A DNA stretch of 58,452 nucleotides, taken from the NCBI GenBank assembly GCA_034087725.1, contig JAXDXW010000071.1, positions 1 to 58,452 of the forward strand, given 5' to 3'. Made by a program: the position numbers and the translations under genes. Of the stretch, positions 3,760 to 57,044 are shown in pieces. This DNA is from Candidatus Onthovivens sp. (GTDB lineage: Bacteria > Bacillota_I > Bacilli_A > RFN20 > CAG-826). The notes beneath the pieces are model-generated. The model saw only the letters and a list, made by a program, of their open reading frames with translations. It was not told where the DNA came from and searched no databases. The first letter of the stretch is position 1, and each line of letters starts with the position of its first letter.

Positions 3760-5212
3760 CTTGAGAGGTTGCTTCAATTTTGTTCTTCTTTCTATCTGTA
3801 TATAGATGTTTATAAAGGATGAAGAAAATTACTATTAGGGCGCCTCCACCAACCATCAAATATGCTGATGTTATGCTAAAGCCATAATAATCTGCAGACG
3901 TTCTAAGAGGTTCTAAAATTACTCGCGTAAAGCCATACCAAATAAGGTATCCTCCAGCTAACGTGCCATCAGCATGGTATTTATCGGCTTTAATGATAGG
4001 ATTATTTTTCTCTTTTGAGAATAAATTTATAAACTTAATAAAATATTTAGAGAAGAAACCTGTTCCAAATCCGTAATAAAGGATAAAATAACCAATTAAA
4101 TTAGTAACTGATTCGATGAAAAATAATGGAAGATAAATTTGATCAGCAGGCAAACTAGTAGAACCATGCTCTGCAAAATGCATGTTATTTTTAATAAAAG
4201 TTGGTAAGAATGAAAAATAGGAAACAGGGACAGGGTATCCATTTACTTCATTATTAAAGAAATTTCCCCATCTACCGATTGCTTGTGCAATTAAAATTGT
4301 AGGAATAATAAAATCGACGAGATGTAAATAATTTATATTTCTATATTCTTTACGTTTCAGACCGTATTTCAAAACAAGCATAGTTGAGACACCTGCGATT
4401 ATACCCAAAATCGCGCCTCCCATAATTCCTAATCCACCAGCTTTAAAATCAAATATCTTAGTCCAATCTTGAACATATTGAGAAGAAGCTCCTGAAGCAC
4501 TTATATCTAAAACGACATACCATAGTCGTGCTCCAATGATTCCTGCTGGAAAAGCTATTAAGAAACAAGTGTATAAAAGTCCATGATAGTGATAAAACTT
4601 ATAGCAGAAATGATCACAAATAAATAGAACCAATATTGCTCCACTTAAGATAAAAAGCGCATATAAAGCAATATTTAAACCACCTAAATTTCCTGTATTC
4701 CTAACTAATATAATTCCTTCTTTTCCTATATGTATGGTATTTGCTAATGGATAGGATAAATATGGTGCATTACCTTCACTAAAAACAATAAAAGAGACTG
4801 CGAAAACAACAGTTGATATAATCCAGGTTGCTTTAAATATTTTTCTAATCTTTAAATCTTCCAAAGGAAGGTAATAACAAAAGAAAAAATTATATATTGC
4901 AGAAAATAACGAAATAACAAAGATAATTCCAAAGAAATAAGTATAAAACTGATGTATAGGTTTGACAGTCAAATTATTCTCTTTAAGCAAATTAATTGTT
5001 GCTTCATCTATATAGAAAGCAACATTTAAAAGTATGAAACCAATCAAAAATAAAACAGTTGCAATAATACAAAAAAGTCCGTATTTTTTGAATAAACCTT
5101 GCAGATCTAAGGTTTTTTTCTTTTTATTCATGAAACCAATTGTTAAAAATAATCCAATGATTCCTAAAATAAAAAACGATAATCCAAAATAATAAGCTAC
5201 ATCATGTGTCAT
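3752..5212 (-). CDS. lgt: Prolipoprotein diacylglyceryl transferase with long N-terminal membrane extension
   Basis: Lgt motifs GARLWYV, GGLGIMGG, AQAIGRWGNFFNNE and YGFTRVILEPLR. About 170 extra N-terminal residues with several TM segments. Confidence 0.9.
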   Translation of the reverse strand: MTHDVAYYFGLSFFILGIIGLFLTIGFMNKKKKTLDLQGLFKKYGLFCIIATVLFLIGFILLNVAFYIDEATINLLKENNLTVKPIHQFYTYFFGIIFVISLFSAIYNFFFCYYLPLEDLKIRKIFKATWIISTVVFAVSFIVFSEGNAPYLSYPLANTIHIGKEGIILVRNTGNLGGLNIALYALFILSGAILVLFICDHFCYKFYHYHGLLYTCFLIAFPAGIIGARLWYVVLDISASGASSQYVQDWTKIFDFKAGGLGIMGGAILGIIAGVSTMLVLKYGLKRKEYRNINYLHLVDFIIPTILIAQAIGRWGNFFNNEVNGYPVPVSYFSFLPTFIKNNMHFAEHGSTSLPADQIYLPLFFIESVTNLIGYFILYYGFGTGFFSKYFIKFINLFSKEKNNPIIKADKYHADGTLAGGYLIWYGFTRVILEPLRTSADYYGFSITSAYLMVGGGALIVIFFILYKHLYTDRKKNKIEATSQDA

Positions 5213-22537: not shown

Positions 22538-22614
22538 GGCCTTGTAGCTCAGTTGGATAGAGCAACAGCCTTCTAAGCTGTGGGTCAGGCGTTCGAGTCG
22601 CCTCAAGGTCACCA
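22538..22614 (+). tRNA. tRNA-Arg (UCU)
   Basis: Acceptor stem GGCCTTG/CAAGGTC, anticodon arm ACAGC-ctTCTaa-GCTGT, A20 Arg identity element in the D-loop, A73, CCA. Confidence 0.96.
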
Positions 22615-22628
22615 TTTTTAAAGAACAC

Positions 22629-22654
22629 AAGCGATAACATAGATATCGCTTTTT
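22629..22654 (+). terminator. Terminator after tRNA-Arg
   Basis: AAGCGATA...TATCGCTT hairpin plus T-tract. Confidence 0.65.
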
Positions 22655-22707
22655 CTTTTATTCTTTTGAGCTTTTTGAAGCATCGAAATTCATGCTATGA
22701 ATTTATC

Positions 22708-22807
22708 GATTCTCCTTTTTTTCACGGGGTATTTTTCAATTTTCCTAATAAAAAAAGAGGTATTTTTTCAAATACCCCGGAAATACCCCGGAAAGAAACG
22801 GAGAATC
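22708..22807. repeat. 100-bp quasi-palindromic element (copy 1) with ~27-bp imperfect terminal inverted repeats and four AAATACCYC(G) boxes
   Basis: Left end GATTCTCC...CGGGGTATTT is the near reverse complement of right end AAATACCCCG...GGAGAATC. Positions 22718-22807 match 56829-56918 with 2 mismatches. Confidence 0.9.
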
Positions 22808-23035
22808 AAAAATTTTCTTGTTTATTTTGAATAGTTATTGAATCTAAAAATACTTCTTGGCTTGCATCACCTGCTATTGAACCTATAAAATCATATCCAC
22901 CTTGGCCAATTGAATTAGATTGAGCTGCTGATATATTACCATTTTGACAAGCTTCTACAATTAAAACTGTAGTGCAAACAATGTAACCAGCCAAAGATAA
23001 ATAAGAAAAAAATACTTCCAGCGATGCTTTTTCAT
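22806..23035 (-). pseudogene. Truncated, frameshifted N-terminus of a membrane protein (possibly VanZ-like)
   Basis: ATG at 23035 (MKKHRWKYFF). One added T in a T7 run joins it to LAGYIVCTTVLIVEACQNGNISAAQSNSIG. The frame stops at the repeat boundary. The family call is only a resemblance. Confidence 0.35.
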
Positions 23036-23145
23036 TTTAATTATTTTAAATTAAATATAGCAAAAAACCTATTTTTTATAAGTTTTTTATATAAAAGTGT
23101 CAATTTTCTCTTTATTTAAGACAATGAATGTGATAGATTATTACT

Positions 23146-23255
23146 TGCGTAGAAAGATGAGCGCCTGCTTCTCACCAGATTGACATTGTCGATTGGTAAA
23201 TTGCTACAAAATATTATTTGTATTTTTAACGGGCGCATAGTTTCTAACGTCCGTT
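23146..23255 (+). promoter_or_regulatory. L20 ribosomal-protein leader RNA of infC-rpmI-rplT
   Basis: GCGCCTGCTTCTCACC...GATTGAC...ACGGGCGC resembles the Firmicutes L20 leader, in the expected position. Confidence 0.7.
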
Positions 23256-23280
23256 TTATTTTTATTAGCAGGGGGAATCA

Positions 23281-23856
23281 ATTATAGCTAACTATCAGAA
23301 TCCACAAGAGGATAACAGAAATCAAAATCGCAAGTTTGATAAATACAATGGCGATATCGTTAATGAGAAAATTCATTTCAAAGAGGTCTTAGTAATATCT
23401 CCAACCGGGGAATCTCTAGGAAAAATGTCTCGATTCGAAGCTTTTAAAAAAGCCGAAGAATATGAATTAGACTTATTATGTGTAGCTCCAAATGCGAATC
23501 CACCAGTTTGCAAAATCGTGAATTACGGTAAATATCGCTTCGAATCTCAAAAGAAAGCAAAAGAGGCGAAGAAAAACCAAAAAATTATTGAAATTAAAGA
23601 AATTCAACTTACTCCTCAAATTGGAGAACACGATATTCAGACTAAAGTGAAAGCTGCTATTAGATTCTTAAGCGATGGCAATAAAATTAAAGTCGGTGTT
23701 AGATTCAGAGGACGTCAATTATCTCACGTTGAAGTTGGTGAAGATGTTCTTAAAAAATTCATTAGCTATGTAACAGACTATGCTACTGTCGAAAAGGCTC
23801 CAAGCCTCGATGGTAAATGGTTAACTTGTGTACTTGCAAGCAAAACAAAGAAGTAG
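23281..23856 (+). CDS. infC: Translation initiation factor IF-3 (non-AUG start, probably ATT)
   Basis: The frame is open 48 codons upstream of the track ATG, to ATT at 23281 after a GGGGG RBS. The extension encodes VNEKI..EVLVI..GE.LG, followed by [15 protein letters not shown] and RFRGRQ. Confidence 0.93.
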
Positions 23857-54915: not shown

Positions 54916-55229
54916 AAAAATTCCTCTAAACAAAATGTAACATTTGACAAAAATTTATTACATTTTATCATTTTAAAAGTATATAAAAATATTTTTTTCC
55001 AAAAATAGTCATACTAACACTTTAAAATCCTATTTTTTTATGAATAAATAATATAAAAAAATTATCTTAATCATTTTTGTATAAATTTAAAAAATACTTT
55101 ATTTTTCAAAAAACCTTGCAAAACTCAATTATTTTTTTAATTTTTCTTCATTCATCATCAAATATACTAAGTTATCTAGGCGGCAATGTATTTAAAAAAA
55201 TAAATAGCTCTTCGTTATTTAAAATAATG

Positions 55230-55532: not shown

Positions 55533-55820
55533 TAGGGAGTCCGGACATTTTTTCGTACCATTTTAGAGGCTGACTCTAGAACAATATTCAGTTGGACTTA
55601 AATATCCTAACCTTTCATTTATTCTCTTTGTTTTAAACCAAGTTAAATACTTGTCTAATTCTTTTATGAACTCTTCTCTTATAACATTGTTCCAGTCATG
55701 ATTATGGAAGAATTCTCTTTTTAATATTCCGAAGAATCCTTCACATGCTGCATTATCTGGAGAATATCCTTTTCTAGACATAAATCTTCTATACCGTATT
55801 CTTCCATTATGTATCATCTA
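55533..55820 (-). mobile_element. IS3-family (IS150-like) transposase 3' fragment with probable right end
   Basis: MSRKGYSPDNAACEGFFGILKREFF...RINERLGYLSPTEY is the integrase-core C-terminus. A GC-rich end (TAGGGAGTCCGGAC) abuts the AbiEi remnant. Confidence 0.85.
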
Positions 55821-55871
55821 AGTTTTAAGATACAATTCACACTAAATTAAATAACTTCTTATTGAGTGTGT

Positions 55872-55896
55872 ACTTATCAAATCACGATTTATCGAG
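55872..55896 (+). repeat. hsdS cassette junction repeat, copy 1 (ACTTATCAAATCACGATTTATCGAG)
   Basis: 25-bp direct repeat with 56371-56395 (1 mismatch); encodes LIKSRF[IV]E; followed by an AGGAGG RBS. Confidence 0.85.
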
Positions 55897-55910
55897 CAGG
55901 AGGATAGATT

Positions 55911-56717
55911 ATGTTAATAAATGAATTATTTGATTTTTTGCCAAAATCTAATCGACCAACTTCTTTTGAAAAAGTTACAGGGAAATATCCATTTTTCAAT
56001 TCTACCAATACAATAGATAAATTTGTTGATCAACCAGATTATTCTGGTGAATTTTTGATTATAGGTGATGGAGGCGCCGGTAATTGTAAATATTATAATG
56101 GCGAGTTTTCAGCAACTGATCATACATATCTATTAAAGCTAAAAGAAGGCGTAAATTGTAAACTAATCAAATATTTTCTAGAAAAAGACAATTTTAAAAT
56201 ATTAAACGATGGATTTAAGGGTGTAGGAATTAAAAACGTTAGTAAATCATATATTCAAAACATTGATTTTAAGAAAAACGGAAATTTTCAGACAAAGAAA
56301 TACTATTTTCGTTAGATTCCATTAATACTTTAATAAGTCAGAATAAAAAACAACTAAAATTATTAGATGAACTTATCAAATCACGATTTGTCGAGATGTT
56401 CGGTGATGTTTTAAAAAAATGATAAGGGATTTGATACCTGCTTATTTGGTGATTATGTAAATCAAATGAACATTGGCCCTTTTGGTAGTGATTTAAAAAA
56501 AGATTGCTTTGTCTCAAAAGAAAATGGTTATTGTATGGTTTATGAACAAAAACACGCAATTGATAAAGATATGACTGTTGAAGCAAGGCATGTTACAAAA
56601 GAAAAATATGAAAAAATGAAGAGATTTGATATTGGGCCTGGTGACATAATAGTTAGCTGTAGAGGAACAATAGGTGAGTGTTTTATTCTTCCGAGTGATG
56701 CGGCGCCTCATGTTTGA
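55911..56717 (+). pseudogene. hsdS: Type I restriction-modification specificity subunit (HsdS), frameshifted and truncated
   Basis: TRD1 (GKYPFF...IIGDGG...SATDHTY...GVGIKNVSK), conserved spacer LDELIKSRFVEMFGD, and TRD2 (GPFGSDL...GDIIVSCRGTIG). Frameshifts near 56290-56305 and in an A7 run near 56415. Confidence 0.85.
56371..56395 (+). repeat. hsdS cassette junction repeat, copy 2
   Basis: ACTTATCAAATCACGATTTGTCGAG. Confidence 0.85.
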
Positions 56718-56781
56718 ATTTTTGTTACATCTATGCCAACGCATGATAAAATATTTATGTCAATCTTGACACACCTCCTTA
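56702..56781 (-). mobile_element. IS110-family transposase 5' remnant
   Basis: An AAGGAGGTG RBS is followed by INILSCVGIDVTK and, after a 1-nt shift, FKHEA. This matches the IS110 N-terminal GIDVxKxKH motif but is only about 20 codons. Confidence 0.5.
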
Positions 56782-56828
56782 TTTTTCCCATTAATATTTT
56801 AGGAGGTTTTTTAATTAAAAAACGATTA

Positions 56829-56918
56829 TTTTTCACGGGGTATTTTTCAATTTTCCTAATAAAAAAAGAGGTATTTTTTCAAATACCCCGGAAAAACCCC
56901 GGAAAAAAACGGAGAATC
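56829..56918. repeat. Quasi-palindromic element (copy 2), left end eroded
   Basis: 88 of 90 nt identical to 22718-22807; lies 49 nt from the tRNA-Pro 3' end. Confidence 0.9.
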
Positions 56919-56967: not shown

Positions 56968-57044
56968 TGGTCGGGGCGACTGGATTTGAACCAGCGGCCT
57001 TCAGTTCCCAAAACTGACGCGATACCAAGCTACGCTACGCCCCG
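56968..57044 (-). tRNA. tRNA-Pro (UGG)
   Basis: Acceptor stem CGGGGCG/CGCCCCG, anticodon arm TCAGT-ttTGGga-ACTGA, TTCAAAT T-loop, ACCA end. Confidence 0.96.

Follow-up and report, generated by a model that had tools for sequence, protein, structure and literature searches.

A quasi-palindromic sequence of about 100 bp occurs twice in the stretch of DNA analysed here (the window, 58,452 nucleotides in length), each time close to the 3' end of a tRNA gene, and the question is what this sequence is and how it came to lie there. The window has a G+C content of ~30% from base composition and is present in public pig-gut metagenome runs. The genomes nearest to it come from uncultured Bacilli of the gut, among them "Candidatus Onthovivens"-like MAGs, with an identity in ThiI of no more than 75%. 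An earlier note on this DNA had offered two readings, either binding sites of a tRNA-targeting tyrosine recombinase or a non-autonomous MITE-like unit. The best explanation, which taken jointly we hold to be very probable, is that the copies are the left-end module of an undescribed insertion sequence (IS) of the ISL3 family, and that the clade to which it belongs inserts 3' of tRNA genes and terminators.

Copies 1 and 2 form a direct repeat of 90 bp, with 34 kb between them. The core of copy 2 (56829-56918) is identical to copy 1 (22708-22807) at 88 of 90 positions, in direct orientation. With up to two mismatches allowed, the box motif AAATACCCCGGAAA has six occurrences in the window, all of them within the two copies, against 0.39 expected in shuffled sequence, and none of 100 shuffles reaches six. 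The tandem pair of boxes is spaced by 11 bp. An Rfam covariance scan of the window returns three tRNAs above the gathering threshold and nothing else. The tRNA genes next to the copies are these:

22538-22614, plus strand: tRNA-Arg(tct), with its own terminator at 22629-22651; 93 nt from its 3' end to the start of copy 1
56968-57044, minus strand: tRNA-Pro(tgg), co-oriented with copy 2; 49 nt from its 3' end to the end (left tip) of copy 2

Coordinates and alignment confirm two copies of about 100 bp with inverted termini and boxes, each less than 100 nt from a tRNA 3' end. An assembly artefact is ruled out, because independent contigs from other samples (L002 and L003) and Logan contigs of eight pig-gut runs carry the element.

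The nature of the element is revealed by places where it has moved. Many contigs from other samples that encode the identical IF3 protein end 650-700 bp upstream of infC, at the element, because repeats fragment assemblies. The contig L002, from another strain, has flanks more than 99% identical to the window and 405 extra bases between tRNA-Arg and copy 1. This excess is a 397-bp element plus a perfect 8-bp duplication of the following site:

22660..22667, plus strand: target site ATTCTTTT, duplicated around the 397-bp copy in L002 and empty in the window

The 397-bp copy begins with the element reversed, at tip GATTCTCCG, and its right end, ...CACCCCGTAAAAAAATGATGAACC, is an inverted repeat of that tip. 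It encodes a 93-aa ORF corresponding to the last 67 positions of DDE_Tnp_ISL3 (PF01610; E 2.5e-13, profile positions 174-240 of 240). An ISL3-family element is recognized by its inverted ends, its duplication of 8 bp and its transposase. Since the three are found together here, the boxed palindrome is to be read as the left end of an ISL3-family IS. The earlier note had allowed that the copies might turn out to be the ends of a known IS; IS ends they do appear to be, though of an undescribed ISL3 member rather than a catalogued one.

A unit of ~396 bp is found at further loci (L012-L014, L165 and L167), with a perfect 8-bp duplication, TATTTTTC, at L167, so that the 397-bp form has the multiple dispersed copies expected of a MITE. 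Several runs have an insertion at site 22660, and the window, L003 and run X1 have none; the Logan contigs of runs X2, X3 and X5 end at it. The 397-bp units are internally deleted, non-autonomous copies that moved recently. The IS family of the window has been recently active, since the 397-bp copy is polymorphic and the 8-bp duplication around it is perfect. In eight runs, the Logan depth of the shared core is several-fold that of the flanks and leads into several different outer flanks, at least five of them beyond the two of the window; joints that skip copy 2 and the tRNA-Pro region, having only 20-21 letters on one side, were left out of the analysis. Two kinds of rearrangement were seen in passing. 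There are tandem duplications at the left tip, of 50 bp in L012 (1826-1875) and of 18 bp in L154 (107-124), and Logan contigs of run X3 show a right end lying inside an element copy at window position 22757.

More of the transposase was recovered on other contigs. L149 holds a longer copy with the middle part of the protein (125 bits against the NCBIfam ISL3 model, NF033550) and a right end as in the deleted copies; the contig starts inside the gene. Another protein, P0003, scores 57 bits against the same model. A full-length copy of the window's own IS that includes the left end was not among the sequences recovered, and the link of the element to the transposase gene is deduced from the copy 2 stub, the deleted copies and two relatives. 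When GTDB genomes, JGI metagenomes and IMG/VR were scanned for exact patterns, only two contigs of one related MAG (MAG154: L145 and L153) proved truly to carry the element, the remaining 19-25-mer matches being nearly all chance ones in unrelated phyla. One such region, in a Holosporales MAG (L001, JAIROR010000079.1, 3560-3600), has three tandem CCCCGGAAATA units that equal the tandem boxes of the element, probably by chance, as the context is unrelated too. Word-indexed protein searches gave short fragments only for the 93-aa remnant and a single match of 38% identity for the L149 middle part. A search with the peptide read across the element, intended to find more insertion sites, gave no candidates.

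The two relatives were found by exhaustive HMMER search. P0017 and P0020 are 426-aa transposases scoring 225 bits against an NCBIfam ISL3 cutoff of 180, and they are 53% and 42% identical, respectively, to the C-terminal remnant of the window family. Their contigs (L154 for P0017; L155-L163 for P0020) have the left-end design of the window in diverged letters. It runs from an inverted-repeat tip ending in a CGGGGT box, through a box 11 bp on, a hairpin and T-run, an inverted box and a CCTCC/GGAGG hairpin, to the start codon, with the coding sequence beginning ATG TTT GAC ATA AAT ATT TTA (MFDINIL...). The 11-bp tandem boxes, a comparable hairpin and T-run, and paired terminal inverted repeats were each located in both L154 and L155. 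Eight-base duplications flank the relatives as well, TTTAAAAC at L155 and GGTATTTA at L161, and all four duplicated targets (ATTCTTTT, TATTTTTC, TTTAAAAC and GGTATTTA) are AT-rich. The architecture of the end is conserved across the three elements.

In the window the module occupies ~95 bp. Its order on the minus strand is a terminal inverted repeat (TIR) of ~27 bp with a CGGGGT box, a second box 11 bp inward, a hairpin with a T-run, and an inverted repeat copy ~70 bp inside. The left inverted repeat (IRL), GATTCTCCGTTTTTTTCCGGGGTA, and the right one (IRR), GGTTCATCGTTTTTTTCCGGGGTC, agree in 20 of 24 positions. Complete copies have right ends that read GGTTCATC[A/G]TTTTTTT[A/G/C]CGGGGT. The parts of copy 1 are as follows:

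22708..22807, minus strand: copy 1, a MITE-like foldback of the IS left end; the IS reads forward on the minus strand, which puts its true left tip at 22807
22781..22807, minus strand: IRL of copy 1, GATTCTCCGTTTCTTTCCGGGGTATTT, which contains box 1 and matches the right ends of complete copies
22769..22780, minus strand: subterminal direct box repeat, CCGGGGTATTTG, 11 bp from box 1; its GGGGTATTT is the 5' arm of the hairpin
22747..22778, minus strand: terminator-like hairpin, GGGGTATTT-GAAA-AAATACCTC plus TTTTTTTATT, with a 9-pair stem and a T-run; includes the GAGGTATTTT box
22708..22734, plus strand: inner inverted IRL copy (IRL'), GATTCTCCTTTTTTTCACGGGGTATTT, with a complete tip, GATTCTCC

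These parts suggest a division of labor. The CGGGGT boxes, tandem and inverted, are candidate transposase-binding sites. The hairpin and T-run of the left end would stop read-through from a strongly transcribed upstream gene; three terminator-like sites are observed in the region of copy 1 versus 0.5 expected. The CCTCC/GGAGG hairpin of the leader would mask the ribosome binding site (RBS) of the transposase and so block translation of read-through transcripts.

Copy 1 has the same layout as the other left ends except for the complete tip on its inner inverted arm. That arm lacks the tip in copy 2, L145, L153 and the 397-bp copies, where it is GATTATTTTTCACGGGG (reading GATTA). The termini of copy 1 are imperfect inverted repeats of 27 nt, and its tip matches the left tip of the IS exactly. 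Judged by sequence, the complete inner tip would give copy 1 two cleavable-looking ends and make it a potential MITE, and as a short non-coding unit with IS-related inverted termini it has the form of one. No target duplication is present at copy 1, the flanks being TATGAATTTATC and AAAAATTTTCTT. In metagenomes its full-tip arm has the depth of the flanks (30 vs. 30 in run X1), and the full-tip form is therefore single-copy per genome; the only other examples of the 100-bp form are the orthologous copies in L002 and L003. With that single-copy state and no target duplication, copy 1 is at most a candidate mobile unit. The MITE-like unit of the earlier note was thus close to the mark in that the copies are relics of ISL3 IS ends, and fell short in that copy 1 is single-copy and has no target duplication. 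A minus-strand ORF at 22806-22994, with no Pfam match, appears cut short by the element and takes its TGA stop from the element tip (T|GATTCTCC). Pieces upstream of this ORF (23116-23376) are broken too, in what is apparently a gene truncated by the element. Probably copy 1 inserted into the gene, and an adjacent deletion then removed the target duplication. As RNA, copy 1 folds at -40 and -43 kcal/mol on its two strands, with z about -6; the core of copy 2 folds no better than shuffles, with z about -1.6.

Copy 2 is longer than the previously delimited 56829-56918, since homology to the IS left end reaches about 56708-56735:

56708..56918, minus strand: copy 2, a 5' stub of ~211 bp consisting of the left-end module, leader and first tnp codons, joined to an hsdS fragment
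56892..56918, minus strand: IRL of copy 2; 49 nt separate its tip and the 3' end of tRNA-Pro, which has the same orientation
56858..56889, minus strand: terminator-like hairpin and T-run, as in copy 1
56824..56845, plus strand: inner inverted box/arm, GATTATTTTTCACGGGGTATTT, without tip
56773..56808, minus strand: leader hairpin, in which CCTCCT pairs with the AGGAGG RBS; shared by the window, L154 and L155
56717..56764, minus strand: transposase N-terminus remnant, (K)IDINILSCVGIDVTKIQT*, compared with MFDINILSCISIDTSEIGEV in P0017 (tblastn, 10/16 identical)

By blastn the stub is 75% identical to L154 over 183 nt (E 4e-29) and 70% identical to L155/L159 over 186 nt (E 2e-14). The alignment with these relatives spans the leader and the first codons, which identifies copy 2 as what is left at the 5' side of a full-length IS after deletion of its body. 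In the stub an AAG has replaced the ATG start codon of the transposase (56759-56774, minus strand), and the frame closes at a TGA 18 codons on; the stub is both truncated and decayed. Besides it, no further ISL3 remnants were found within the window. The view that the window encodes no recombinase holds for intact genes, with the qualification that this ISL3 transposase remnant of ~18 codons adjoins copy 2. Both window copies are inert relics, neither of them autonomous, and their mobility would need a transposase in trans.

The surroundings of copy 2 also contain decayed genes. Fragments of hsdS (Methylase_S) lie at 55911-56315 and 56466-56717, each preceded by a 28-nt direct repeat (55869-55896 and 56368-56395, 93% identical). 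These pieces (55869-56717) look like a decayed specificity gene of a type I restriction-modification (R-M) system, cut at 56717 by the IS stub. A transposase fragment at 55563-55817 (minus strand) is IS3-type (Pfam rve_2, E 4e-11). Of the three kinds of debris named in the earlier note, the hsdS pieces are borne out, IS110 is replaced by this IS3-type fragment, and AbiE had no match among the ORFs tested at 54.9-56.7 kb. No exact-protein match is on record for the two genes flanking copy 2, probably owing to start-codon choice.

A second short repeat family was noticed in the window. Its core, AAAACC[C/T]TGCAAAA, is present at nine sites versus 0.25 expected (55102-55145, 1795, 12970, 14084, 19839, 24499, 26047, 34247 and 50314), in both orientations and mostly intergenic, and it is possibly REP-like. 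The copy at 55102-55145 is at 8-16 times flank depth in pig-gut runs. Separately, L153 (MAG154, JAEDIE010000001.1) has three AAGGGTACGGA boxes at 4030-4130, just upstream of the terminator and element copy, and IS3-family remnants after the element, one with an in-frame TGA.

We tabulated every distinct insertion site with at least 60 nt visible upstream of the left tip. There are 13 such sites for the three elements, listed here by element, upstream feature and distance to the left tip:

Window copy 2: window family; tRNA-Pro; 49 nt
L145: window family; tRNA-Ala(ggc); 18 nt
L002: window family; tRNA-Arg; 53 nt
L167: window family; truncated tRNA whose anticodon loop reads Lys-CTT; 53 nt
L153: window family; terminator-like hairpin; about 10 nt
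L012: window family; terminator-like hairpin; 73 nt
L165: window family; terminator-like hairpin; 24 nt
L154: P0017 element; tRNA 3' end, then terminator; 60-77 nt
L155: P0020 element; tRNA-Leu(gag); 17 nt
L159: P0020 element; tRNA-Thr(ggt); 12 nt
L156: P0020 element; truncated tRNA-Ala-like; about 80 nt
L162: P0020 element; probable tRNA 3' end; 15 nt
L158/L160/L161: P0020 element; terminator of a protein gene; 24 nt

The left end lies 12-80 nt 3' of a co-oriented tRNA gene in nine of the 13 sites and 3' of a co-oriented terminator-like hairpin in the other four. All 13 read in a single direction, from upstream gene or hairpin through the left end into the transposase gene. In several extra Logan flanks the tip is 3-6 nt past the T-tract of a terminator. 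Four of the nine tRNAs (L154, L156, L162 and L167) are cut by contig starts and were assigned by eye from the T-arm, acceptor and CCA; ARAGORN and Rfam (E <= 0.01) did not call them. The 80-nt 3' flanks of tRNAs make up about 4% of the window DNA outside ORFs of at least 100 aa, so nine of 13 sites at tRNAs is a large enrichment, on a site sample that is small and drawn from short metagenome contigs. The link of the copies with tRNA 3' flanks noticed in the window is real and extends to the relatives. The element was absent from the tRNA-Arg flank in the two relatives inspected, and likewise from the loci around the thiI gene in 80 relatives.

The mechanism we propose is that elements of this ISL3 clade would insert from a few to ~80 nt downstream of tRNAs or terminator hairpins, oriented so that their left end is turned toward the upstream gene, and that the transposase, or a host factor used by it, would recognize a polar cue at the end of the tRNA or terminator hairpin. 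That the clade actively targets tRNA 3' flanks and the hairpin/T-tract tails of terminators, in a fixed orientation and with a left end built for this niche, is to us an evenly balanced proposition. The same pattern might be produced with no choice of target if purifying selection in a compact genome were the sole cause of the adjacency and orientation. ORFs of at least 100 aa cover about 90% of the window; therefore, insertions would be tolerated in few spacers only, and the spacers after tRNAs and terminators are among the safest. On that account, however, the ends of protein genes should far outnumber tRNA flanks as insertion sites, which is not what the nine tRNA sites in ~4% of the non-coding DNA look like. 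The single orientation of all 13 sites is not obviously predicted by selection alone either, and several tips lie just 12-18 nt from the end of the tRNA. We consider selection as the whole explanation rather unlikely, while the survival of harmless insertions may well contribute to the site pattern.

The remaining alternatives concern the identity of the element itself. Its strong folding on both strands of copy 1, the terminator-like hairpin and the position of copy 1 between convergent transcription units would suit a bidirectional terminator or REP-like regulatory hairpin domesticated by the host and kept beside tRNA genes. On the other side, the element is polymorphic in its presence and missing from the thiI loci of the 80 relatives and the tRNA-Arg flank of the two inspected, copy 2 folds no better than shuffled sequence, and there is no Rfam match; we find this reading very improbable. 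Slightly less credible still is a MITE unrelated to ISL3 that landed by chance in or next to ISL3 copies. Copy 1 is indeed a self-contained 100-bp unit with inverted termini, and elements of the window family do nest within each other. Against this, the tip and the ISL3 right end pair as inverted repeats, it is precisely these two tips that the 8-bp duplications border, and relatives with 42-53% C-terminal identity and diverged ends keep the layout of box, hairpin and inverted box at equal positions. Hardly any credence is left for the idea of a tRNA-targeting tyrosine recombinase with which the earlier note began, whether the copies are taken as its arm-type or accessory sites or, more broadly, as an att remnant, also of a genomic island. 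The nearness to tRNA 3' ends speaks for it, and the decayed R-M and IS fragments beside copy 2 could be an old island. But an integrase is absent from the window ORFs near the copies and from the related contigs, and the last 16-25 nt of the three tRNAs have no duplicate in the window at up to two mismatches. Duplications of 8 bp are present at L002, L167, L155 and L161, with none at copy 1. The absence of tRNA-derived direct repeats in the window, together with tips that always lie outside the tRNA, 12-80 nt beyond it, means that integrase-type recombination is not at work. The complete copies have TIRs, 8-bp duplications and ISL3 DDE sequence, as a C-terminal remnant in the window family and as full genes in the two relatives.

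As the left end of an ISL3-family IS, the element can be compared with described members (ISL3, IS1167 and ISAfe1; NF033550, PF01610). It shares with them a single DDE transposase of ~420 aa with an N-terminal Zn-ribbon, TIRs of ~24-27 bp, 8-bp duplications and a transposase frame running into the right inverted repeat. TIRs in the family range of about 15-39 bp are present at both ends, and a DDE_Tnp_ISL3 transposase is linked, of which the window itself keeps only the ~18-codon N-terminal remnant; the 8-bp duplication is seen at the four sites just named and not at copy 1, copy 2 being truncated. The differences from known ISL3 elements are that the window-family transposase parts have no close full-length relative in the protein collections searched (the C-terminal part is 53% identical to its best full-length match, the middle 38% to its one match in the word-indexed database), that the left end is an elaborate ~95 bp with tandem and inverted boxes and a terminator-like hairpin, and that insertions cluster, co-oriented, just 3' of tRNAs and terminators. 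In the literature, with ISfinder not covered, we found no report of ISL3 selectivity for tRNA flanks or terminator flanks. With MITEs and deleted IS derivatives such as Correia elements and RUP, the copies share a small non-coding form, inverted termini derived from IS ends and dependence on a transposase in trans. The 397-bp form is likewise repeated and polymorphic with target duplications, whereas the 100-bp form of the window is single-copy without one and is built from a single IS end and an inverted duplicate of it further in, rather than from a left end fused to a right end.

Tyrosine-recombinase islands and the tRNA-homing transposons of the Tn7-like/CAST type also use tRNA neighborhoods as safe landing sites. 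In contrast to them, the present element is a single-gene IS of ~1.5 kb with no integrase, tRNA-derived att repeats, TnsABCD or CRISPR components. The nearest functional analogies are class C group II introns and IS1630. Class C group II introns insert just after terminators in an orientation-specific manner. IS1630 (IS30 family) of Mycoplasma fermentans targets inverted repeats, according to the passage of PMC3317919 that cites Calcutt et al. 1999. Both analogies share with our element an insertion beside inverted repeats or intrinsic terminators in small low-GC genomes. The enzyme differs, being an ISL3 DDE transposase here and not an IS30 DDE transposase or a ribozyme/RT, and the main neighbors here are tRNA genes. 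The duplication in this clade is a fixed 8 bp, not a 16-26-bp duplication of the hairpin itself.

In itself the element is ordinary genome litter, a truncated IS stub and a foldback relic of an IS end. Such relics explain the repeat, the assembly breaks at the site and the adjacent gene decay, and repeats of this kind fragment the MAGs of a common pig-gut lineage at tRNA loci. The part of interest is the pattern of tRNA and terminator flanks in this ISL3 clade, as target selectivity is, as far as we have found, not a known trait of ISL3 elements. Should the bias be enzymatic, this would be a one-protein system for orientation-specific insertion at harmless tRNA-adjacent sites, with an IS end adapted through its terminator and RBS masking to life behind strongly transcribed genes in compact genomes. 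If the targeting is true, it would be a single-gene bacterial IS counterpart of the eukaryotic retroelements that target Pol III genes, and possibly a safe-harbor insertion tool.
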